Of a stretch of 64,000 nt of DNA, positions 21,109 through 56,265 are shown one piece after another (the first letter of the stretch is position 1; each line of letters starts with the position of its first letter). The translations under genes and the position numbers were made by a program. This DNA comes from Dictyostelium discoideum (Eukaryota), in NCBI GenBank assembly GCA_000004695.1, contig CM000153.2, forward strand, positions 1,568,001 to 1,632,000, read 5' to 3'. The notes under the pieces were generated by a model that saw only the letters and a program-made list of their open reading frames with translations, was not told the DNA's origin and searched no databases.

Positions 21109-21190
21109 CGACATCGGCAGGGTTCGAACCTGCGCCTCCTAGGAGATTTGATTTCAAGTCAAACGCGTTAGACCACTTCGCTACGATGTC
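21109..21190 (-). tRNA. tRNA-Ser (anticodon UGA), 82 nt, with a long variable arm
   Basis: Reverse complement: GACATCG TA GCGA AGTGGTCTAA CGCG TTTGA CTTGAAA TCAAA TCTCCTAGGAGGCGC AGGTT CGAACCC TGCCGATGTC G. It has a 7-bp acceptor stem, a D-loop with GG, an anticodon loop cT-TGA-Aa, a class-II variable arm (CUCCUAGGAGG), a T-loop GGTTCGAAC and a T5 terminator just 3'. The two overlapping ORF-track entries (21036..21224 +, 21077..21295 -) are artefacts. Confidence 0.85.
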
Positions 21191-35327: not shown

Positions 35328-36931
35328 TTAGAATTCACCTCTTGCGAGACGATCCAATAAATCATCTAAAGAATCATCATCAACCACAGTAGTTGAAGTA
35401 GTTGTTGAACTAGTGGTGCCAATTGTATCCAATGAATTTATTGCCATATCATAATTGATTGCATTTGAATTTTGATTAGAGATAGATTGATTAGCCTCTT
35501 TAAGAAGATCATCGAAATTAAAGTTATTTGAATTCATTATTGATTCCAATTCTTCAAAAGTAAATGATTCTTCATTATCATCATTAACAATTACATCATT
35601 TGATTTATTTTCATTTTCAATTGTTTGTTCTTGATGTTGATGTTCTTCCTCAATTGCATGTTCTTCTTCATAATATTCTTCTTGGTGGTGTTGCTCTTGT
35701 TCTTGTTCTTGTTGTTGTTCTTGTTCTTGTTCTTGTTGTTGTTGTTGTTCCTCTTGAATTGGCTCTCGAGGTTGTTCTTGTTCATCATCATATTGTTCAT
35801 AGTGTTGTTGATCTTCTTCATAATACTCCTCTTCTTGTTGTTGAGGTTGTTCTTCAACAACGGGTAAATTAACAGGTTTTTCTGGAACTGGTGGCTTTGT
35901 TCTTGCTGGTGGTGGTGGAGGTGGAGTTTTTTTTGGTGGATTATTATATTGTAATGAAACTGGTCTCTTAATTTGTGGTGAATCAGTTGGTGATGGTGGT
36001 GGTGGAAGAACTGAAATATCAATTGGTGGTGGTGCATCTTGTGATGAAGTAAGTGTTGGTGGTGGTGGAAGAACTGAACCAGATGGTGATAATGTAGTTT
36101 CAGAAGCTGTCGTTGTTGGTGGTTGTTTAATGAATGATCTTGGTGGTGTTGGTGGTTTTTTCAAAGTTTCAACTGGTGGTGGATTCATTTGTTGTAATAA
36201 TTGTGGTGAAACTGGTGGTGGTTCACTACTAGTTCTTGATAATATAGTAGAAGGTGGTGATAATGAACCATCCGTTGTTGTTGTTGTTGTTGTTGGTGGT
36301 GGTTGATTTGGTGATTTTGCAATTGGTCTTTTTGCAACAGGTGGAGGTGGTGCTAATGTAGTTGGTGGTGCTGTTGATGTTGTAGTTGGTGGTGGTACTG
36401 ATGGTCTACCTGGTGGTAAAGTTGGTTTATTAGATGGTGAAAGTTTAGTAGTGGTAGTTGATTTTGGTGGTGGAATTGGTTTAGGATCGCCTGCTTTTGG
36501 TGGTGCTTTTGGTACAAATTGACTTGGAGCTGGTGATTTCTTTAATGCTGTTGGGGGTGGTGATTGAGGTGGTGGTGGTAAACTATTACCACTACTTGAT
36601 AATGCATTATGTGGTAATGAAGGTTGTAGTGGTGATTTTGGTGGTGATGGTAAAACTGTATTATCACTACTAGATGATAATGGTGGTGGTGCAGCAACTG
36701 AACCATTTGCAACCTTTGGTGGAGGTTTTCTTTTTGCCATCATTGGTGCTGGTTTACCAGTGGCATTGGCAGAATTTACTGGTTTTAATTTTGCAATTGT
36801 TGGTTGTGGTGGTTCTGGTACCACATCTCCATTACTATTTTTATTATTATTATTTACATTTGGTGATGGTTTAGCAGCTATCTTTCTTTGTGGTGGTAAT
36901 TTTTTATTTGCAGTATTTTGACTATTATTAC

Positions 36932-36975
<44 letters not shown>

Positions 36976-38003
36976 GTCATCATCATTGAAATTCTTTGTT
37001 TAGTTTGTTCTGGACTTGTATCATGGAAATGTTTAATGATTATGCCCAAAATTCTCATCATTGTTTCAGGTCTAGTCTCCCACATATCTTCACCAGTGAT
37101 ATTTACTAAATTAACACCTAAAACTTTTAAGAAACGTAAAATGATATTATTATTTTCAATTATATGAATTTTTGTTGTTGGTGTTCTATTGAAATCTTTA
37201 ATTGATAAACCACTTAAACCTTCCAATAATAATGCCAAAACACAACCATTTTTTAAATCTGATTCTAAATTTTCAATCTTTTCATTCTTTCCAAATTCAA
37301 CTAATTTCTTATTAATCCAATCAATTATAACTGTTTGTGATTGTTCTTTTTTTGGTGTTGATTTTAAAATTGGTTTCTAAAAAAAAAAAAAAAGGAAAAT
37401 AAAACTATTAGTGTTGTTTTTTTTTTTTTTTTTTTTTTTTTTTGGAAATTAAATTAAAATAATAATCATACATTATCAGGATTATTTCTTTTTAAAGCAA
37501 TTTCATTCATTAATGGATTAATACCGAATGATCTTTGTGGTGCTCTATCTTCATCTGGAGTTGGTGGTGGATGTGATGGTGGACCTGAATCACCAACTGA
37601 AACACTTGTTTTTTGAGGTGTTGGTGGCAATCTAGATGGTGGTTTACTAGTAGTATTAGTTTGAGTTGATGCTGAAACACCATGTGTTGTTGTTGGTAAT
37701 GATTCTTCACCCCATTTTACTGAATCCTTTTTCTTTTTGAAGATTAATTTAAATTTATCTAATTGGTTATCCTCTTCCCATTTTTTATAAATTGTTCCTG
37801 GATTTTCTGTTTCTGCTATCTCTTGACATGTAATTCCTAATTCATTTTCATTGTTTGTTGATTTTATCATTTTTTTTTTTTTTTTTTTTTTTTAAATGGT
37901 AAAAATAATAATAAAGAAATAAATGGAAAAAAAAAAAAAATTAATATTAATTTTAAAAAAATTAAAATTATTATGATAATAGTAAAAAAAGAAAAGAAAA
38001 AGG

Positions 38004-40855: not shown

Positions 40856-41984
40856 ATGAATAATAAAAAGTTTCAAGTTAATTTCAATAACATTCCAAAA
40901 TTACCAAAAGGTAGTTTCGGTGGCGGTTTTGGTTTATTAGCATTAGGTGGTGTTGGTTTATTAGCACTTAGTAGTTTAGTTAATGGTAAGTTCCAAATAA
41001 TTTCAAAAAAAAAAAAAAAAGTATATTGTAAAAAACCAAAAATTCTAATAGTAATTATTTAATTATTTATTTTATGACTATTTATTTATTTATTTATTTT
41101 ATGACTATTATTTATAGTTGAAGGTGGTCATAGAGCAATTGTATTTAATAGATTTGTTGGTATAAAGAATAAAGTTTATAATGAAGGTACTCATTTTATT
41201 GTTCCATGGTTTGAACGTGCTGAAATTTATGATGTTAGAGCTAAACCACGTAGTATTTCATCATTAACTGGTAGTAAAGATCTTCAAATGGTTAATATTA
41301 CAATCAGAGTTTTATCAAAACCAAAAGTTAGTCAACTTCCAGCCATCTATAGAACATTGGGTAAAGATTATGATGAAAGAGTATTACCATCAATTGTAAA
41401 TGAAATTTTAAAGAGTATTGTTGCACAATTCAATGCATCTCAATTAATCACTCAAAGAGAACAAGTGTCAAGATTAATCTTTAAAAGATTAGTTGATCGT
41501 GCTAAAGATTTCAATATTGAATTAGATGATGTTTCAATTGTAAATATTATTATTATTATAAATTATATAATTAATTAATTTATTAATTAATTATTTACCA
41601 CTAACCAAATTTAATTTTTATTTTTTTATTATTTTTTAATTTTTTATTTTATAGACTCATTTAAATTTTGGTAGAGAATATGCAGCAGCAATTGAAGCAA
41701 AACAAGTTGCACAACAAGAAGCTGAAAGAGCACGTTTCTTAGTTGAAAAAGCATTACAAGATAAAAGAAGTATCATTGTTAAAGCAGAAGGTGAAGCCCA
41801 ATCTGCTCAACTTATTAATGATGCAATTAAACAATCACCATACTTGGTACAACTTAGAACTTTAGAAGCAAGTAAAGAAATTGCTCATATCCTTTCAAAA
41901 TCACCAAACAAATTATATATTAGCAATGAAACTTTATTATTAAATGGTTTTGATTTAAATAATAATCAACAACCAAAAAAATAA
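40856..41984 (+). CDS. Prohibitin-2 (PHB2)
   Basis: Three exons: 40856..40985, 41118..41539, 41655..41984. The donors are GTAAGT at 40986 and GTAAAT at 41540. The acceptors are AG at 41116-41117 and AG at 41653-41654. The spliced protein ...LVN|[69 protein letters not shown]...[29 protein letters not shown]...LDDVSI|[33 protein letters not shown]... is near-identical in motif order to human PHB2 ([17 protein letters not shown]...[18 protein letters not shown]...[29 protein letters not shown]...[40 protein letters not shown]). Confidence 0.9.
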
Positions 41985-42128: not shown

Positions 42129-43458
42129 TTAAGCGGTAGTGGTAACATCTGGAGTAGTTGCGGTGGCATCTCTTGGTTCTGGAACTAAAGCGATTTTAAC
42201 AGAGAGTTCTCTACTTTCAACAGAGAGTTTGTTAAGGGTGAGACCTTTTTGTTGATTGGCAACATCATCGAATTCGACGAAACCGAAACCTTTGCTTCTG
42301 TTGGTGTGTTTGTTGACAATGACATGAGCACTCTTTGGTGAGCAATCTTTGAAGGTTTCTAATAATTTAACATCATCAAAAGAGTATGGAATGTTTCTGA
42401 CAAAGAGGGTAGTGGTACTTTGTTGTCTGTCAGCAGTGTTGGCAGCTGGTCTTCTTTCTCTCTTTGGTTTAGAGGTTTTGGTAGCTGGAGCAGCGGCGGT
42501 TGAGGCAGCAGCAGTGTTGGTGGTGGCATCGGTGTTGGTGGTGGTAGTGGCAGCTTTGACGTCTTTGGTGTTACGTCTGGCATTTCTACGTTTGGTGGTG
42601 GTATTACCATTTAAAGTTGGTGATGCTTCAGTGGATTCAGTAGTAGCATTTTCGCCAGTGGTGGTGCTGGTTGGTTTTGGTGTTCTAGTCTTTCTGGTTG
42701 AAGTTCTCTTTGGTTTGCTTTCGGTACTCTTTTCACGAGCGATTTCAACATTGACTTGTTTACCGTCGAATTCTCTACCATTGATGGCGGCAACAGCTTT
42801 ATTGGCAGTTTCTAAATCTTCCATATCAACGAAACCAAAAGTGTTACTCTTGAACTTCTTTTTAATGATTCTAACACTTAAACTATAATATTTTTTTTAT
42901 TTTAAATAAAATTAATATTAATATTCAAAAAATAAAAAAGAGTTTATATAAAATTATTATTAAAAAAAAAAAAAAATTAAAAAAAAAAACAAGAATTGGG
43001 TTTGAAATTTTTGAGAAAAAAAAAAAATAATTAAATGTTTTGCAAGTTATCCTTTTTTTTTTTTTTTTTTTTTTTTTATTTATTTTTAGGTTTCACCATT
43101 GAGTTTCATTGCATATCACATTGTTTCCTTTGACCTTTTTTTAAAAATTTTTTTTTTTTTTTTGTGTGTGAAAAACGAGCGAAAAAAAACGGGCATAAAA
43201 ATAGTGTGTTTTATTATTGATTTTTTTTAAAAAAAAAAAAAAAAAAAATAGTGTATTGATTTTATGTAGTATTTTTTTTAAAAATATATATTTAGATATA
43301 TAAAAAATTAATTGGTTTTTATTTACTTACACTTTACCGAATTCAGCAAAAGCAGTTTCTAAAGTTGAGGATTCAACATTTTCAGTTAAGTTACCAACAA
43401 AAATTCTGTGGGCTGGAGTAGTTGGGGTGGTGATGGTGGTTTCGGATGGAGCAGACAT
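42129..43458 (-). CDS. RNA-binding protein with two RRM domains and a basic T/A/K/R-rich linker; RRM1 is interrupted by an apparent 1-nt frameshift
   Basis: Exon 1 is 43331..43458 (MSAPSETTITTPTTPAHRIFVGNLTENVESSTLETAFAEFGKV, RNP2 = IFVGNL) with a GTAAGT donor. Exon 2 begins at 42881 (acceptor tatAG), LSVRIIKKKFKSN..., but is out of frame by 1 nt with the downstream ORF 42129..42824 (..FGFVDMEDLETANKAVAAINGREFDGKQVNVEIA = RNP1 and β4 of RRM1, then the linker, then RRM2 LFVRNIPYSFDD...KGFGFVEFDD). The break is at the A4/T4 run around 42837..42840. Confidence 0.55.
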
Positions 43459-43571
43459 GACTTTTTCTTTCTATAAATTGTCTAGAAATGAGGGAAGGGA
43501 AATAAAAAAAAAAAATATAAAAAAATTATATTAAACAAATATGTATGTGTATGTATTGAAATTGGACTTTG

Positions 43572-43654
<83 letters not shown>

Positions 43655-43965
43655 CAAAATTAAAAATTTAAAAAAAATTAAAAAAAAAAAATTAAAAATA
43701 AAAATAAAAATAAAAAAAAAAAAAAAAGAAAATCCAACTGTCTCCTCCTTCTTCGGTTTTTAATTTATTTTTTTGTGTTAACTTCTTGAATTAAAATAAA
43801 AAAAAAAAAAAATGAAATAAAATAAAATAAAAAAGATTAAAAAGGAAAATAAAATAAAATTTTTAAAAAAAAAATTAAAAATTAAAAATAGAAATTATAT
43901 AAATAAATATAAATGAAAAATGACTTGGATGCCAATTCAATTTTGATTTTTTTGCCATTTTTCTC

Positions 43966-44003
<38 letters not shown>

Positions 44004-44299
44004 AATTATCAAATAATTAAAGTATTTAATTATTTATGAATTGAATTTAAATACCTAAATCCAAATTTCATTTTTAATTTTTTTTAATTTTTTTTAATGT
44101 TTTAATAATATTTTTTTAATTCTTTTCCGTTGAATGTTTTTTAATATTCCATTTTTATTTTATTTTTTTTTTTTATTTCCATTGAATGTTTTTGATTATC
44201 TTGGATATTATTTTTAATTAGATTTTTTAATTTCTTTCAAAAAAAATAAATAAATAATAATAATAAAAATAAAAAAGGAGAATAACTTTTTTAATATTC

Positions 44300-44332
<33 letters not shown>

Positions 44333-44540
44333 GTATTCCATTTTTATATTTATTTTCTTTTAATGTTTTTTTATTAAAATTGATTATTTTAGATATTTAT
44401 TTTAATTGGATTTTTTAATTTACTTGTGATTAAAAAAAATAAAATAAAATAAAATAAAATAAAATAAAAAAAAAAAAAAAAAAAAAAAATTTACAATTAA
44501 TATTTTTAATTTAATAAATTAAAAATTTTTTAAGAATACA

Positions 44541-44572
<32 letters not shown>

Positions 44573-44602
44573 TTATTTATCTATTTATTATTTAATCAAG
44601 CT

Positions 44603-45308
44603 CTAAAAGACACCTCCACAAATATTTAAAACACATGCTCCAATAGTGAGTGCAGAGGCAATAACAATTGCAATCCAACTGGTGGTTGGACCTTGGTAAT
44701 AGTTGTCATCAGATCTTGCGAAATCAAATCTACCATTATCATTATTACAAAATTGATCTTTGAATGCATCAGAGTCGTATCTATTTCTGCAATCTTTTTT
44801 TGATGCATTTTGGACACCCTATTAAAAAAAAATTTTAAAAAAAATTAATATTAAAATTATTATTTTTTAATAAATATAAAATAAAATAAATAAAAAAACT
44901 TACCAAAAAGATGAACATTGAAAGTAAACAACAAATAACGGCAAGGATTAAAATGAATTTACCAATCATTGGAAGAATACTACCGAGGATTGGAATTTTT
45001 TCGAGAATACCAAAACCAGAGAGTAAAGTGATAACAGCGGCAATAATAAGGACAATCCAAGCAAGGATATCAAAAGCCAATGAAGCATTAAAGATGGCAT
45101 ACATATTTTTATTATCTTCTTTTACACTCTTTGGAATAGAATTTGTGTATGTTCTGGTGCCATCATCAGTTCTAATTTGATTATATTTAATTAATGATGA
45201 AGTATCACCAATTTCATATTTATACCAATAACTGGCAAAGGCAATAGTACAACAAACTAAAGCCAATAAAATTAAAACAAAGCTAACAAATGCTAAAACT
45301 TTTGCCAT
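44603..45308 (-). CDS. Four-TM membrane protein with Cys-containing extracellular loops, paralog 1
   Basis: Two exons: 44904..45308 and 44603..44818, with a GTAAGT donor (reverse complement of acttac at 44898..44903) and acceptor aatAG. TM1 is LAFVSFVLILLALVCCTIAF; TM2 and TM3 follow the conserved FNASLAFDILAWIVLIIAAV motif; TM4 is WIAIVIASALTIGACVLNICGGVF. Family not identified. Confidence 0.6.
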
Positions 45309-45536
45309 TTTTTTTTTTTTTTTTTTTTTTTTAATAAAATATTTAATATTAAAATAAATTTATTTTTTAAAAATATTATAGGTTTAATAAATAAATAAAA
45401 AAAAAAATTAACTGATTTTTTTTTGTTTTTTTCGTGCCAACTGTTTTTTAAACAATGATTAAAAAAAGTATCAAAATTATTTTTAAAAATAATTTTTCTA
45501 TTAATAAAAAAAAAAAAAAAAAAAAATTAAATAAAA

Positions 45537-45569
<33 letters not shown>

Positions 45570-46013
45570 TATTTTAAACTAATTTATTTGAAAAAAGGAA
45601 CCCCAAACCGCCAGTTAGATTTTTTTAGTTTTAAAATGATTTTAATTTTTTTAATGATTTTAATTTTTTTAATTTTTTTTAATTTTTTTTATTTTTTTTT
45701 TTTTTTTGTTTTTCAGATAACTTTGGAAAATTGTCTGAAAATCATTTTTTGTCTCAAAAATCAAGTGTTTTACGACAGTTAGGGCGCCTACACAGAATTG
45801 TAAATCCTTCAATTTTTCTTTTCTTTTTTTTTTTTTATCTTAATTTATTTTTTCAAATAATATTTATTAATATTTTTTTATTTCTTTAAATTTCTATTTT
45901 TAATCAACATTATTTTATTTTATTTATTTTTTATTTTTTATTTTTTATTTTTTTTTTTTTATTTTTTTTTTTTTTATTTTTATTTTTATTTTTTTTTTTT
46001 TTGGTTGACAGAT

Positions 46014-46774
46014 TTATTTTCCAGAAGTTTCTTCATTCTTAACGAAAACACCACAAACAATTGCAATGATAGAGGCTATGAGAGATAAACCAGAAGCAGC
46101 AACAACAAAACCAAAAGATAGATGAGGACCCCATTTCATAGATTGACCACTAATATCAACATCACCAATAAATGATTTAAAATAGGCACTATCACAAGCA
46201 CCGATTTCATCATCACCATCATTCATTTGATTTTTACAATCATTCTTTCTAGCATTTGATAAACCACAAAATATAAACATTGATATCATTAAGAAAATAG
46301 TTGAAATTATTAAAACAAATTTAGAAATCATATGAATCTTTGGAATTGGAATAAGAATTAATTTACCAACAATTTGTAATGATATTAAAACAGCACCAAT
46401 AATTAATGTAATCCAACCGAGAATATCAAATGCTAAAGATGCATTAAAAATCTCTAATTGGTGTTTCATGGTTTTCTTCACATCACTTGTATAATCTTGG
46501 ACTACACTTTGTTCATTTCCATCCATATTCAATATAAGTTTTGCTTGATTATATTTTAAATATGTAGTTGTTGTTGTAGATATTCCATTACTTGATGTTG
46601 TTTCAATTTTCATATAATACCAATATGCTATATTAAAAAATAAATTAGAATTATTATTATTATTATTATTAATATTGTTTAAGATTTGCAATTCTTACAT
46701 GAAAATGCAATAGTTGCAGCAACGAAACTAAGTACTACAAATACTAATGAAATTAAAGCTGATATTTTAACCAT
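46014..46774 (-). CDS. Four-TM membrane protein, paralog 2 (tandem with 44603..45308, same strand)
   Basis: Two exons: 46699..46774 (MVKISALISLVFVVLSFVAATIAFS plus 1 nt, GTAAGA donor) and 46014..46627 (acceptor tatAG). It shares TIAF(A/S)SYWY, EIFNASLAFDILGWITLIIGAV, SMFIF(L/C)G...KDC...and the C-terminal TM GLSLIASIIAIVCGVF with paralog 1. Confidence 0.6.
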
Positions 46775-46860
46775 TTTTATAATAAAAAAATTAATAAAAT
46801 AAAATACAATTTAATAAATAATTTATAAATAAATATAATACAAAATGAATACAAGTGATT

Positions 46861-46893
<33 letters not shown>

Positions 46894-47240
46894 GTTAAAT
46901 AATTTTAAAATTGATTTTTATTAATATTTTTTTTTTTTTTAAAATTTAATTTTAATTTTAATTAATTAAAACTTTTGATAAATTATGAAATCAAAAGGTA
47001 AATGTCAGATCTGTTAAAACCGTTTCTAAATTAATTATTTTTGCAGATTATTTTTTTTTTTTCTTTTTCGAAAATCAAAGAACACCATCGATTAAAAAAT
47101 AAAAAAAAATTTTTACAAAAACTAATTAGTTAGGTTAAAAAACTAAGTAAAAATTTTTTTTTTTAAACAAACTGTTTTTTAGATATTTAAAAAACTTTTT
47201 TTTTTTTTTTTTTATATCCCTATACTAAGTGCTTGTGTTT

Positions 47241-47272
<32 letters not shown>

Positions 47273-47546
47273 TTTTTCTGATTTGCAATAGAATGAATTA
47301 ATTCTGACGGTTTTATTTTTTGACATTTTTTTATTATTTTATTTTTTATTTTAATTTTTTTTTTTTCAAAAATAATGTCAACTTTTTATAATAATAATAA
47401 TAATGATAAAAAATTTAATAAAAAAAAAAAAAAAAATAATATTTAATTAATTTGAAATAATTTGGATTTATTTATTTATTTGTTGTGTTTATTATTTTTA
47501 AATTATTATTATTTTATTTTTATTTTTATTATTTTTTTTTTAATTT

Positions 47547-49128
47547 TTAAACATTAAGAATAATGGATCTGATTGGAGCATAACCATTTGGAGTGTTTAG
47601 TGAGATCACCAATTGTTCAGTACCAACATATTTGGTTAAGATTGGAGCATTTCCAATATCACTTGGTATTAAAATATCAAACTATGTTATTTAAGTGGTA
47701 ATAATAGTAAAAACAAAAATAAATAAATAAAAAAAAATTAATATTTTGTTTTCTTATAATTATTATTATTATTATTATTTAAATAACACTTTAAAATATA
47801 TACTTACATGACGTAAAAATCCTTCACCCTTTGCTCTAATTGCAATATTACGATGAGAATATAAGTTATTATATTTAAGAATTAATTCTGCTTCTTTATC
47901 CATTAATTTTTTTAAAAGTTTCTTTTTTTCAACAAAGAACCAAATAAAAAATGGAATCCATAAAACAACACCAAACAAAAAGCATGTTCCTATAATTGCT
48001 AAAAAGAACAAAACAGTAAGACCATGGTTAAACTAATTTTAAAAAATGAATAATTATTAATATTAAAAAAAAAAAGTTATTATTTTTTAAAATTATAATT
48101 TTAATTAAAAATATATTATACTTACATGACATTTTAAACTTTGGAAATCTTCAACCATATTATATACTTCAGTTTCAGTTAAATAATTATATAAACTTAA
48201 ATCATAATAAAAGTTAAAACCATCATTTCCACCTAAATTAAATTTCACTAAGAAAAAAAAAAAAAAAAAATTTTAAAAAATTTAAAAATTTGTTAATAAA
48301 TATCATTCATTGTATGTATGTATGTACGGATGTTTTAAAAAAAATTTATACTTACCAAATCTTTTACCAATTATAGTATTTGCTTTTAAAACTGCAGTAC
48401 CAGATTCATTTCTAAATCCATAATCAGTGAAAAATAAAGTATCTGGGAATGGTTCCATAATTAAAGCATTTTTACCATTATCAAGTGGAATTGCTTGAGA
48501 AAGGACTACTGGGGGGGATATCTGGATATACAAGGTTAACACATGCTTTTGCACCTAAATAACTACCAACTTCATGTAATTCAAATTTAAGATTTCTTCT
48601 TGAAACTTGTTTATTTAAATATTCAATACATATATTAAAATCATTAGTTAACTTTAATTGTATACAAATATTTATAAATAAAAAAATAATTAGTATATAT
48701 TATTAAATATTATTTTTTTATTTTGTTTTGTTTTTTATAATAAAAAAATAATTACAGTTTTTTTAAAAGAGAACCATCTAATAACTTCAGAGATTGAAAT
48801 TATTAGTGCAGCAATGAGACCAATGAAATAATACATAAGTGGTGTTAGTATTAAAAGATAGGAAATAAAATGTCTTTGACAATTATTTGACATAATTTCT
48901 AAACATCTTAAATATTCTATTTTTAAAAAAATATTAATTTTAAATTTTATTAATAATTTTACAAATTTATTTATTTTTTTATTTTTTTTTTATTTTTTTT
49001 TTTTACTTGGAAATATTTTAATTACCTTTTGGAGGAATAATACCAGTTAGTTCCCTTGGGAAAAATTCACTATTAAATTCTCCATATCTATATTGTCTTG
49101 GAGTTGACTTGATTTTAAGGATACCCAT
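47547..49128 (-). CDS. Six-exon membrane protein of unknown family (about 314 aa; TM helices near both ends)
   Basis: Exons on the minus strand: 49026..49128, 48756..48916, 48356..48554, 48126..48247, 47808..48032, 47547..47681. The donors are GTAATT, GTAATT, GTAAGT, GTAAGT and GTAAGT; the acceptors are all AG after T/A-rich tracts. The product is MGILKIKSTPRQYRYGEFNSEFFPRELTGIIPPK|EYLRCLEIMSNNCQRHFISYLLILTPLMYYFIGLIAALIISISEVIRWFSFKKT|VQKHVLTLYIQISPPVVL...GKRF|VKFNLGGNDGFNFYYDL...KCH|FNHGLTVLFFLAIIGTCFLFGVVLWIPFFIWFF...GFLRH|FDILIPSDIGNAPILTKYVGTEQLVISLNTPNGYAPIRSIILNV. Confidence 0.5.
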
Positions 49129-49795: not shown

Positions 49796-50551
49796 TTACA
49801 TCCAATTACTTTTACCAAATTTAGTATTTAATTCAGAGGAACCTCTAACAATATTATTTAAATGTTCTTTATCAACTTTACTTATTTGTAATTCTTCATC
49901 TCTATTGAATGTGTAATCTTTTTTATTACTATTGGATGATGATGATGATGATGAGGATTGCTTTTTTTGGTGCATTGATAACAAGGAAGAGGATCTGTTT
50001 TTATCATTATATTGCTTCATTTTTTCTTCAGTTTCTTGTTGTCTTAATTTTTCAAATAATTGTTTAGAACCTTCAACAGGAGTAGTTCCTCCTGTTGTTG
50101 TTGTTGTTGTTGTTGATATTGAACCAACATTACCTTTTTGACTGAATTGTCTATTTGACATTGAATCAATTCTACCAGTTGGCATCATTGTCATCCATTC
50201 CTCTCTTTTTGTTGTTTTATTTGTACTATCAGTATCACCATTTTTATTATTTTCAATCATATTTCTTACTCTCTCCCATTCTGATTTTGTATCTTCTTCA
50301 TCTTCTTCACTACTATCATCATCATCATCATTATTACTATTATGATTACTATCATTATTATTTGTATTATATCTTGATGGTCCAATTGATGGACCAATTG
50401 TTGGTCCAATTCTAGATGGGCCAATTGCTTTTTTATTATTATTATTAAATTTATCATTATCATTATTATTATTGTCATCATCTAATCTTGGACCAATAAC
50501 TCTTTTACTTATAGATGGAGGTGGTTGTGGTCCTAGTATTATATTATTATC

Positions 50552-50613
<62 letters not shown>

Positions 50614-50926
50614 CAGTTTCATCATCTAATCTTGGGCCAATAATTTTCTTTGTTGGTGGCAGTTGTGGAGATAGTATTGTAGTTTTATCATTGTCAGTTT
50701 CATTTAGTGATGGACCAATAACAGACTTTTTTGGTGGAGGTTGAGGTGATTGAATATCATCATTATTTAATTGTTTGTAGTTGTTGTTGTTATTGTCATT
50801 GTTATTATTTTCTTCTAATGTACGTTTTTTATTGTTGTTTGAATCTCTAAAGTTTACTTCAGTTTTTTGTTCATTATCATTGTTTTGTGTGGTTGGTGGC
50901 GGTCTGGCTGGTCCGATAAAACTCAT
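49796..50926 (-). CDS. GPALPP1 / DUF3752-family protein (ortholog of human GPALPP motifs-containing protein 1)
   Basis: 376-aa single ORF. It has repeated (I/V)IGP(A/S/R) motifs (SFIGPARPPP, SVIGPS, KIIGPRLDD, RVIGPRLDD, AIGPSRIGPTIGPSIGPS) where the human protein has GPALPPG repeats. The C-terminal block REEWMTMMP...SLLSMHQKKQ...FNRDEELQISK...SSELNTKFGKSNWM matches human RESWMTELPP...SLMDIHHKKLK...FDRDKDLKVNR...SRELNTRFSHGKGNMFL. Confidence 0.8.
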
Positions 50927-51167: not shown

Positions 51168-51399
51168 ATGGAAGATAGTAATACAAATAAAGATATAAAT
51201 ACAAACATAACCAATGATGATGATGATAATAAAAATATAAATAATAATAATAATAACACAGAAGAAGATGTAACAGTAGAAAGAATTTTAGAAAGAAAAC
51301 AAAAAGAAAGAGAGAGTAAATTAGCATCAATGATGAGTCATTATCATCAAAAATATTCATCACCATCTTCATTACTATCTTCACCAATTTCATCAAATG

Positions 51400-51433
<34 letters not shown>

Positions 51434-52657
51434 ATCATTTGATATTAATAATACAAGTTATAATGGTCAAGATGATCAAGATGAAATGGATGATTTTGAA
51501 AGTGAAGAATATAAACAAATTTTATTAAAAAGAAAAGCGGCATTAGCAGCTAAAAAGAAGGAATCATTAGCTGAACAAATGAAAAAATATAATCAACAAT
51601 ATGATAGTATCATATCTGGTGTAAATACAATACTTTCACCACCACCTTCGTCAACTACTTCAAATTCATCAACAAGTAATAATAGTAGTTTAAACGTTTC
51701 ACCTGTATTATTCTCAACAACATCATCTTCAAAATTACAATCTTTAAATAATAATACTTCACCTTCAACTTCTTCTTCAAATTTAATTGATTCTACAAAT
51801 GTACAAACTACCTCTACAACAACAGCAGCAACATCAACATCAACACAATTTACAAATACAAATATAAATACAAATTCAAATACATTAATAGAGAATTCAT
51901 TAAAAATATCGAATGAAAATAATAATGAATTAAATGAACAACTACAACAACAATTTATTTTACAACAAGAACAACTTAGAGAACAAGAAGAATTAAAAGA
52001 AAAATTACAACAACAAGAAATTGAAAGAATGCAAACTGAAAGAAAGGAAAGAGAATTACAACAACAAAAAGAATTAATTAAAAATGCTACATTAGATAAT
52101 CAACAACAACAACAACAACAACCACAACTAGAATTACAACAACAACAATCACAACCACAACAACCAATATTACTTCCACCATTAATATTTGAAACAAATG
52201 ATATACCACTTTTAACAAATGTTGGCTTTGCAACTTTAAAAAATATTGAATGTAATGCCATTAAATGTTCAGAAGAAGTTGTTTTATTAACTAAAACATT
52301 ACATCAAAGTTTATCAACTGTAAATATCATTTAATATCAATTATTATTTATTTATTTATTTATTCATTTGTTCATTAATATTAATAATATTCATTTATTT
52401 GTTATTATTATTATTTATAGATAACAAAAATATCAATTGAATTGTTTGAAACTTTTAATGGATCAACAGAAGTAACATGTAATGCAATTGGATACTCTGT
52501 TAATGAAACTAAAACAATGATTGATAAATGTTTCGAATTGAATAATCATACGAAATCAGTGATTTCACTTCATCAAAAGATTAAAACTGTTAGAGATCAA
52601 TTGGATAAATTTGATCAAATAATACATAACGCAATTAAACAAATGAATAAAACTTAA
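51168..52657 (+). CDS. Hypothetical N/Q/S-rich protein with a C-terminal coiled-coil-like region
   Basis: Two exons: 51168..52319 (GTAAAT donor at 52320) and 52421..52657 (acceptor tatAG at 52419-52420). Splicing joins ...LTKTLHQSLST|ITKISIELFETFNGSTEVTCNAIGYSVNETKTMIDKCFELNNHTKSVISLHQKIKTVRDQLDKFDQIIHNAIKQMNKT. No family recognised. Confidence 0.5.
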
Positions 52658-54283: not shown

Positions 54284-56265
54284 ATGAACACAGAGATAAT
54301 AAGACAAAACACCATTATTCCTTTAACACCTGACATAACAACCAACAATAATATCGTCCACAGTAATAATAACAATAACAATAATAAAATGACAAAATCA
54401 AAACAGGATGATAATTTTGACAATAGCAATAATAGCAATAATAGCAATAATAATAAAAATAATAAAAATATTTTACCCACAACACGAAATCGAAATGTAA
54501 ATTCTCAACAAAAAGTAGGAAATGGAAATGGGAATGGAAATTCATTAGCAGATGAAGCAGCGAGTGGTTATGGTACAGGTAATTCATTATTATCATTAGA
54601 CCCATTGTCACAGATTCAATCTATGGCTTCATTACAATCACCAACATTTTTAAATAAATCTTCACCAAATCCCACTCCCAACATATCACTCCCACAACCA
54701 ACTATTTCAACAACGGCAAACCCTACATCACCACCTTCTTCCGCAATAACAGCAGCAACTACAGGTACAACAAATACAAATACAAGTACAACATCAACTA
54801 CTGCAAATAATAATAATAATAATAATAATAATAATTTAAGTGCGGATAAAAAGATTCAAAACTCACTCCAACTCTTGAGAAATAGTACCAAAAGTAATTC
54901 TGTAACATCATCATCATCATCATCTTCTTCTTCATCATCATCTTCATCTTCACCACCATCCACAAACAACAGTGATAACACATCACCACAAGAGCCGTCA
55001 CCTTCATCCTCTAATTCATCAATATCACCATCAACAACTCCCACTTCTTCACAACAATTAACATCACCTCAAGAGTCAAATCTTTCATCCTCACAAGGTC
55101 AGACAACCACCACCACCACCACTACCACTACTACAAATACCACCTCAACAACCACAACTAGAAAAAGAAGATCTACATCATCAGTGAATAACACAACAGT
55201 GGCATCACAAACAAATACAACTTCTACACCACCACCACCAACAACAACAACTACTACAACTACTACTACTAAACCAAAAGGAGCACCAAAAAGACAAACT
55301 AAAAGGTCAAAAAGTAAAGGTGATTTAAATAGTGAAAATGAATCAACCCCATCATCACAATTATCATCATCATCATCATCAACAACAACAACAACACAAT
55401 CATCTCAACCAATCAATGATGATCAAGAAGATGACGACGATGATGATGATTATGATAACTCCCAAGCATCAACAACTTCAAATGGAAGTGGTGGTGGTGG
55501 CGGTAATAAAAAGAAAACTAAATCAACAGTTGGTAATAGATTTGATAATTCACTCGTACAATTAACGAAAAAGTTTTTAGATTTAATTGAAAAATCACCA
55601 AATGGTGTATTGGATTTAAAAGTTGCATCAGAGAAATTGGAAATTTCAAAAAGACGTATCTATGATGTCACATGTGTATTGGAGGGTGTAGGATTAATTG
55701 AAAAATGTTCAAAGAATCAAGTACTATGGAAAGGTATTGGTAATGATGTCAATGGCCAACAAAATTCAAATGGTCAACAACAACATCAACAACAACCATT
55801 AGATCCAAAACATGTCGATAATTTTAAAAAAGAATTGAAAAAGTTGATGGAAAAAGAAGCAAGTTTAGATAACTCTATTAAAAAAGCAAATAAAAATATA
55901 CATAATACATTATACGAACCAAAATCATCAAAGTAAGTATTTTATATATAAATTTATTTATTTCTAATAATTTATTAACCCTCTCCCCCCCCCCCCCCCA
56001 AAGATTAATGTTTGTTACACATGATGATTTAAGAAATATTGAAACTCTTAAAGGTGATACAGTTATTGCAATTAGAGCACCATCTGGAACAAGATTACAA
56101 ATTCCTGATCCAGATGAAGGTATGGAACCTGGTCAAAGAAGATATCAAATTTTATTAGATAATGAAACTAATGCACCAATTGATGTTTTCTTATTAAATC
56201 AAACTACTATGCAACCAACTGATTCAATAACAAATAATACAAATACAAATACAAATAATAATCAT

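Follow-up and report, generated by a model that had tools for sequence, protein, structure and literature searches.

Two tandem four-transmembrane proteins of Dictyostelium discoideum belong to an uncurated dictyostelid family with a predicted claudin fold

What kind of protein is encoded by two neighbouring genes of Dictyostelium discoideum that the databases call just 'hypothetical protein', 'uncharacterized protein' or 'transmembrane protein'? The genes, hereafter A and B, lie on the minus strand of a 64,000-nt stretch of contig CM000153.2 (assembly GCA_000004695.1, positions 1,568,001 to 1,632,000; hereafter the window), where they are bracketed exactly by positions 44603–46774. A first-pass annotation of the DNA had described them as a tandem pair of paralogous membrane proteins of unrecognised family. 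The reading that we favour, and hold to be moderately probable, is that A and B represent a lineage-specific claudin-fold family of cell-surface membrane organisers or adhesion proteins, one paralogue of which is specialised for spores.

Gene A is DDB_G0284169 (Q54Q29, XP_638768.1) and gene B is DDB_G0284119 (Q54Q28, XP_638769.1) of D. discoideum AX4, and the spliced products, of 206 and 229 amino acids, are identical to the database proteins over their full length. Splice sites are GT..AG throughout; the gene models are correct, and both genes are already annotated yet uncharacterised. Exon 1 of gene A (44904–45308; codons 1–135, 100% identical by tblastn) encodes transmembrane helix 1 (TM1), extracellular loop 1, TM2, a short cytoplasmic loop and TM3, and is followed by an 85-nt phase 0 intron (44819–44903, GTAAGT...AG) placed after ...SMFIFL at the end of TM3. 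Exon 2 (44603–44818; codons 136–206 and a TAG stop) supplies extracellular loop 2 with the cysteine pair C145/C159, a GP..SW motif, TM4 and a tail of four residues. In gene B, exon 1 (46699–46774; codons 1–25 plus one base) holds TM1 only, a 71-nt phase 1 intron (46628–46698, GTAAG...AG) follows TIAFS at the end of TM1, and exon 2 (46014–46627; codons 26–229 and a TAA stop) encodes SYWY, extracellular loop 1, TM2, TM3, loop 2 with C156/C170, TM4 and a tail of ~12 residues. The AT-rich spacer between the genes (45309–46013, 705 nt) holds the promoter region of A and the sequence that flanks B on its 3' side. When both proteins were searched against the window with tblastn, no third copy was found.

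The first-pass annotation was right to call this a same-strand tandem pair of paralogues: A and B are 40% identical end to end (BLASTP E 2e-41), far beyond chance, and judged by this similarity they are true paralogues. Their exon structures, which had been called identical, are not. Each gene has a single intron, but the two introns interrupt different places, after SMFIFL in A and after TIAFS in B. Each position persists in its own lineage: that of B in its Dictyostelium firmibasis orthologue (exon 1 encoding amino acids 1–25) and that of A in a D. firmibasis paralogue (P0007). The distinct positions agree with an old split between A and B. A neighbour-joining tree, which is rough and carries no support values, places A with a Dictyostelium purpureum protein and B with another lineage, so the duplication seems older than the divergence of D. 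discoideum and D. purpureum; we propose gene A as an older paralogue. Ratios of nonsynonymous to synonymous substitution (dN/dS) against Dictyostelium citrinum and D. firmibasis were 0.24–0.49, with most change in the loops, which indicates purifying selection.

Both proteins have the four TM helices that had been proposed for them, as four hydrophobic segments on the Kyte–Doolittle scale and as four long helices in AlphaFold2 models, and the core motifs quoted in support of the pairing (TIAF.SYWY, IFNASLAFDIL.WI.LII, SMFIF, (K/N)DC and a C-terminal TM) are present in each. The four-TM layout leaves two large extracytoplasmic loops, of ~41 and ~45 residues in the models, and the termini are probably inside. 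Cytoplasmic parts are minimal, with an N-terminus of three residues, a TM2–TM3 loop of ~10 residues and C-terminal tails of 4 (A, GGVF) and ~12 residues (B, ...NEETSGK); neither tail contains a PDZ-binding motif or a terminal YV. Cysteine pairs had been expected in both extracellular loops. The pair in loop 2 is real, and exactly two cysteines are found in that loop in 58 of 68 relatives, but loop 1 has none in A, in B or in 62 of the 68. The loop 2 cysteines are the only ones outside the membrane, the CC doublets of gene A lying inside TM1 and TM3, and they probably form a disulfide that would staple together two short helices of that loop.

Family members are about 190–230 amino acids long, and A and B both carry every hallmark motif of the family (numbering of A): W28-Y29 where TM1 ends, ASLAF.I.AW where TM2 begins, D144-C145...C159 in loop 2, and P179..(G/S)W183 where TM4 begins. 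Across 41 core members, D144, C159 and P179 never vary, and conservation is 90% or more at W28, C145 and W183; the consensus is ...S.YWY...ASLAF.ILAW...S..IF.G...A...DC...C...GP..GW. These conserved positions cluster towards the outward-facing tips of the helices, along the external boundary of the membrane and beneath the extracellular sheet described below. Claudins have their W-GLW-C-C motif at this site, and the conserved residues of the family would clamp the sheet onto the helix bundle. We considered and rejected N-glycosylation at the NAS sequence within this set: the sequon varies across the family (KAS, QSS, RAS and others) and sits at the membrane boundary, so the conserved element is ASLAF and not a glycosylation site.

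We modelled A and B with AlphaFold2 from alignments of 10 and 13 close relatives, respectively. Model A (mean predicted local distance difference test score (pLDDT) 77.8, predicted template modelling score (pTM) 0.72) has helices at residues 2–25, 67–98, 108–135 and 181–202 and strands within 29–57 and at 176–179; model B (pLDDT 79.4, pTM 0.71) has the same layout. In both, loop 1 forms four beta-strands and then a short helix leading into TM2, and loop 2 forms two short helices bearing the two cysteines and then a strand or hairpin leading into TM4. The claudin fold was the best match to both predicted structures over their full length. In a Foldseek search of the Protein Data Bank (PDB) with model A, the best 50 matches were all TARPs, LHFPL4/GARLH4, claudin-15, claudin-3 or GSG1L, with target-normalised template modelling scores of ~0.5–0.7 against single-chain targets. 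Across two methods the closest structural matches include TARP gamma-2, -3, -5, -7 and -8, Cav gamma-1, LHFPL4/GARLH4, GSG1L and DUOXA1, and the models resemble claudins, MP20 and a designed claudin fold at least as closely as they resemble the TARPs. The models make it very likely that A and B adopt a claudin fold, that is, a left-handed bundle of four TM helices topped by an external five-stranded sheet, to which loop 1 is predicted to contribute four strands and the short helix and loop 2 one strand or hairpin. Because the predicted structures match the claudin architecture, we place the family in the claudin-fold superfamily.

Sequence comparison points in the same direction. The best Pfam matches of gene A were SUR7 (E 1.6e-4, 21.8 bits, threshold 29.6) and Claudin_2 (E 0.043, 14.0 bits, threshold 29.1), and gene B scored 10.8 bits against Claudin_2 (E 0.43, same threshold) and 6.5 bits against SUR7. 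Weak matches among the 41 core relatives were to Amastin (4), SUR7 (4), L_HMGIC_fpl (2), Claudin_2 (2) and PMP22_Claudin (1), all of which Pfam groups as claudin-like tetraspan families; those outside this group were MARVEL (2), CD20 (1) and scattered singletons. The best Amastin (PF07344) match in a core relative had an E-value of 3.1e-5, and the family's majority consensus scored 16.9 bits against that model (gathering score 27.2 bits), second to its best match, Claudin_2 (E 0.0023, 18.2 bits), with which consensus residues 15–161 are colinear over profile positions 1–164 of 192, from TM1 to loop 2. PMP22_Claudin (PF00822) was not listed for A or B, and its single match (1/41, E 0.0019) was below the gathering score. 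The signal toward claudin-like families in these comparisons is consistent, not significant.

How large is this family, and where does it occur? Word-indexed homologue searches recovered only orthologues from the D. discoideum species complex and one D. firmibasis paralogue; the remaining relatives emerged when 1.84 billion representatives were searched exhaustively with a HMMER profile, matches being counted as clusters at 50% identity. This search returned 93 clusters at E ≤ 1e-3, 49 at ≤ 1e-10 and 16 at ≤ 1e-30, the 49 solid clusters having E-values from 1e-98 to 1e-10. All relatives that we looked up and that bear a source name are dictyostelid, in line with the suggestion of a lineage-specific family; they come from D. 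purpureum, Tieghemostelium lacteum, Synstelium polycarpum, Heterostelium album, Acytostelium subglobosum, Cavenderia fasciculata and Polysphondylium violaceum, and further paralogues are found in D. discoideum and D. citrinum. The family is uncurated, in that it is absent from curated libraries, and has so far been seen under names only in dictyostelids.

Five long relatives (P0027, P0034, P0039, P0069 and P0070) join the four-TM domain to CLU/TPR, BTB/DUSP, ankyrin, GATase or HMG-box domains. Because no partner domain is consistent, these are most likely merged gene predictions, and we rejected them as a guide to function. The tail of the profile search (E 1e-6 to 1e-3) contained four-TM proteins that we did not count as family members: P0083 (L001 3001–3777), P0077, P0081, P0086, P0093, P0097, P0100 and P0108. 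They keep a tryptophan after TM1 and a WG.GPGW-like motif before TM4, are without the loop 2 cysteine pair, and have weak DUF4064, Trp_oprn_chp, SUR7 and Claudin_2 matches. P0083 lies on a contig of 48–51% GC whose compact genes share one strand; its neighbour is an Lhr-type helicase, and this context looks prokaryotic. The similarity of these proteins to the family may reflect deep homology or noise from TM composition.

When is the pair expressed? For gene B, RNA-seq values in transcripts per million (TPM) are available for DDB_G0284119 from Kin et al. 2018 (PMC6198379, supplementary file 5). Expression at 0, 4, 8, 12, 16, 20 and 24 h of development was 1.0, 0.9, 2.5, 4.0, 3.9, 15.0 and 5.0 TPM, peaking at 20 h, and was 2.2 TPM in prespore and 2.9 TPM in prestalk cells; among purified cell types it was 137.6 TPM in spores, 4.3 in stalk, 0.22 in cup and 0 in vegetative cells (PMC6198379). 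With 137.6 TPM in spores, none in vegetative cells and a 20 h peak, gene B is expressed late and is specific to spores. Rosengarten et al. 2015 include it in their lists 'up at 1 h' and 'up at 3 h, gradual'. Neither gene is listed in the spaA RNA-seq supplements. Another Dictyostelium gene, somA (DDB_G0270980), is listed with a claudin-2 domain and is a published stalk marker (PMC9117722), so cell-type-specific claudin-like proteins are not unprecedented in this organism.

What might such proteins do? With almost no cytoplasmic mass, A and B must act through their extracellular face and lateral TM contacts. We suggest that they reside in the plasma membrane and associate laterally, possibly with themselves, that the extracellular sheet would touch a partner protein, an adjacent membrane or the extracellular matrix, and that they would in this way anchor the surface membrane or keep it organised. 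The analogy is with fungal Sur7 and with PMP22/EMP/MP20, the members of the fold with short tails. Gene B would act in spores, most plausibly at the interface between the plasma membrane and the spore coat, under the cellulose-glycoprotein layer. The assignment as surface membrane organisers or anchors is tentative, somewhat less likely to be right than wrong, and the location at the plasma membrane or spore surface is our inference.

A number of results weigh against this proposal. The claudin fold is taken from predicted models with shallow alignments, in which pLDDT in the loops is 57–80. Every Pfam match of A, B, the 41 core relatives and the consensus fell below the gathering score. A PDB sequence search with B gave no match, and the core-family profile searched against PDB sequences found no claudin and nothing relevant; a claudin-3 match (E 0.0056) was set aside, since it was seen only with a broader profile that included distant, partly prokaryote-like sequences. 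Aligned with hhalign to human claudin-4 (a sequence that matched PDB 7tdm at 451 bits over residues 1–209), the core family showed no significant relationship (hhalign probability 0.5%, E 0.11). The claudin extracellular loop 1 signature W-(G/N)LW-C-C occurred in none of the 41 core relatives in a regular-expression scan, and the loop 1 disulfide is absent. On the expression side, gene A has one entry in the differential-expression lists of Rosengarten et al. 2015 and was not found in the searched parts of other expression tables; a search of the supplementary tables of a life-cycle proteome turned up neither protein. Our literature search returned no paper naming either gene identifier or UniProt accession, and none describing the family. 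The family is in effect half placed, through its fold and without a significant sequence match, which goes halfway to what the first-pass annotation had itself named as its refutation: the earlier description of an unrecognised family stands in that no Pfam model reaches its gathering score, and gives way in that the predicted structures of A and B best match the claudin fold.

The same fold could serve a different job. A and B may be auxiliary or regulatory subunits whose TM helices and extracellular sheet dock onto a partner (a channel, transporter, receptor or oxidase) and so adjust how it is trafficked or gated, as TARPs do for AMPA receptors, gamma-1 for Cav1.1, LHFPL4 for GABA-A receptors and DUOXA1 for DUOX1. 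Precisely such proteins (TARPs, Cav gamma-1, LHFPL4/GARLH4, GSG1L and DUOXA1) are among the nearest structural matches, and minimal cytoplasmic mass makes action through lateral TM contacts and the ectodomain plausible. However, TARP tails are long, regulated and cytoplasmic, in contrast to the 4–12 residues of A and B; no partner gene is linked, the neighbours encoding an RRM protein and a Band_7 protein; the domains fused in the long relatives are inconsistent and look like merged gene models; and the models resemble TARPs no more than they resemble other claudin-fold proteins. We regard an auxiliary role as unlikely, at roughly one chance in a handful. An independent origin of the family, as four-helix proteins nearer to MARVEL, CD20 or tetraspanin organisers, would make the claudin likeness convergent or a product of modelling bias and the loop 1 sheet unreal. 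The lack of a significant sequence link to any claudin-like family fits this explanation, as do the few relatives whose MARVEL, CD20 or tetraspanin matches are equally weak. It accords poorly with a list of 50 best Foldseek matches that are all claudin-fold, with the shared loop architecture of A and B, modelled independently at 40% identity, and with a plurality of claudin-like families among the weak Pfam matches. Tests for membership of the MARVEL family (PF01284; two of the 41 core relatives matched weakly) and of the tetraspanins (PF00335) were negative, and our scan found the tetraspanin CCG motif in none of the core relatives; together with the missing claudin signature, this bears out the first-pass statement that neither claudin nor tetraspanin motifs are matched. 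We consider convergence or bias quite unlikely.

Least probable of all, and very doubtful in our view, is cleavage of the first hydrophobic segment as a signal peptide, which would leave a mature protein with three TM helices and an exposed N-terminal domain. The segment is N-terminal and a small-x-small site comes directly after it (A-F-A|S in A, A-F-S|S in B), but its hydrophobic stretch of ~22 residues exceeds the typical signal-peptide core, it packs as a confident bundle helix in both models (pLDDT 79–92 over residues 1–20), and TM1 is conserved like the other helices, with the invariant W28-Y29 directly after it. A bolder extension of the claudin-fold reading is that the family is the social amoebae's own claudin-fold radiation for cell–cell or cell–matrix sealing and adhesion in multicellular development and sporulation, truly homologous to claudins/PMP22 and Sur7; such proteins may, for example, anchor the spore plasma membrane to the coat or seal an epithelium-like tissue. 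If so, claudin-type membrane organisation would be older than the divergence between Amoebozoa and the animals and fungi, and under such homology the weak prokaryote-like relatives might hint at a still older origin. We rate this extension as improbable, at something like a one-in-ten chance.

Returning to the locus, the pair belongs to a conserved neighbourhood. Both D. firmibasis and D. citrinum retain the order B, A, RRM gene, Band_7 gene, and A and B are adjacent, by locus tags, in every species-complex genome found. In the window the two downstream neighbours are an open reading frame (ORF) for an RRM-type RNA-binding protein (42129–42824, minus strand) and a prohibitin/Band_7-like exon (41288–41578, plus strand). 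D. citrinum has an additional tandem duplicate of A, with two copies of 206 amino acids (L005 5001–5723 and 6499–7218), and its annotated B orthologue (L005 3660–4271) is a single exon of 203 amino acids that seems to be without the short first exon. A three-species alignment of the A–B spacer showed short islands of conservation, shared with D. firmibasis, D. citrinum or both, at ~45434–45474, 45576–45595 and 45731–45744, one of which reads, on the minus strand, AATCATTGTTTAAAAAACAGTTGGCAC; lying upstream of A, these islands are probably promoter elements. No SrfA-type CArG box was found near A or B, and the whole window contains 4 where 5.8 are expected by chance. We found no Rfam match and no tRNA gene within 43000–48500.

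The window as a whole is extremely AT-rich (GC 15–31% per 2-kb segment), with short genes and introns. The sole tRNA gene found in it is a tRNA-Ser (anticodon TGA) at 21109–21190 on the minus strand. Large ORFs with poly-Asn, poly-Gln, poly-Thr and Pro tracts lie at 35328–37238 (minus), 49796–50926 (minus), 51168–52334 (plus) and 54284–55936 (plus), and are typical low-complexity coding sequence of D. discoideum.

What is new here should be separated from what was known. Both genes were annotated, claudin-like proteins outside animals are already known (Sur7, amastins, somA), and the fold can be found by any structure search. The new element lies in defining a dictyostelid-wide and uncurated family with a cysteine-free loop 1, D-C...C in loop 2, WY and GP..GW at the membrane boundary, no cytoplasmic tails and one spore-specific member. 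If the assignment to the claudin fold holds, dictyostelids carry an expanded, uncurated claudin-fold family of at least 49 clusters (50% identity) that spans all major dictyostelid groups, and this family offers a genetically tractable system, neither metazoan nor fungal, in which to ask what a bare claudin fold does without tight junctions. Gene B becomes a candidate for a constituent of the membrane at the spore surface. In practical terms the gain is a modest one, a family definition and a fold annotation for two 'hypothetical' genes, and implies no new class of mechanism and no new kind of protein.

How, finally, do A and B compare with known systems? Classical claudins (claudin-3, -4, -15 and -19) share with them the four-TM layout, the two extracytoplasmic loops and, by prediction, the fold, but the W-GLW-C-C motif, the loop 1 disulfide and a C-terminal tail with PDZ-binding YV are all absent from A and B; Dictyostelium is not known to form tight-junction strands. 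The TARP, Cav gamma and LHFPL auxiliary subunits are metazoan; their cytoplasmic tails are regulated and their channel partners are known, and no such tail or partner is evident for A and B. Kinetoplastid amastins (PF07344) are likewise lineage-specific, expanded and tandemly arrayed small four-TM surface proteins with stage-specific expression, and Amastin is one of the two commonest weak Pfam matches of the core relatives (4 of 41), all below threshold, although the organisms are unrelated; amastins have cysteines within a signature located in loop 1, a loop that is free of cysteine in A and B. Fungal SUR7/PalI (PF06687) gave the best single-protein Pfam match, that of gene A, yet this too remained below its gathering score. 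These are also tetraspan proteins of a walled non-metazoan cell, which makes them an attractive analogy for the spore-specific paralogue: Sur7 of Candida albicans, a tetraspan protein with a claudin-like cysteine motif in loop 1, is needed for plasma-membrane organisation and cell-wall synthesis (PMC4865322). That cysteine motif is absent from A and B. The PMP22/EMP/MP20 and Claudin_2 type (PF13903/PF00822; lens MP20, PDB 9cbv) is alike in its four TM helices, its large sheet-forming loop 1, its very short cytoplasmic termini and its lack of an enzymatic domain. Claudin_2 (PF13903) is also the best and colinear match of the family consensus, although the family's scores of 10.8–18.2 bits compare with a gathering score of 29.1. 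From this type the A/B family differs by its cysteine-free loop 1 with a conserved cysteine pair in loop 2, and by juxtamembrane motifs of its own (WY, ASLAF, DC..C and GP..GW).

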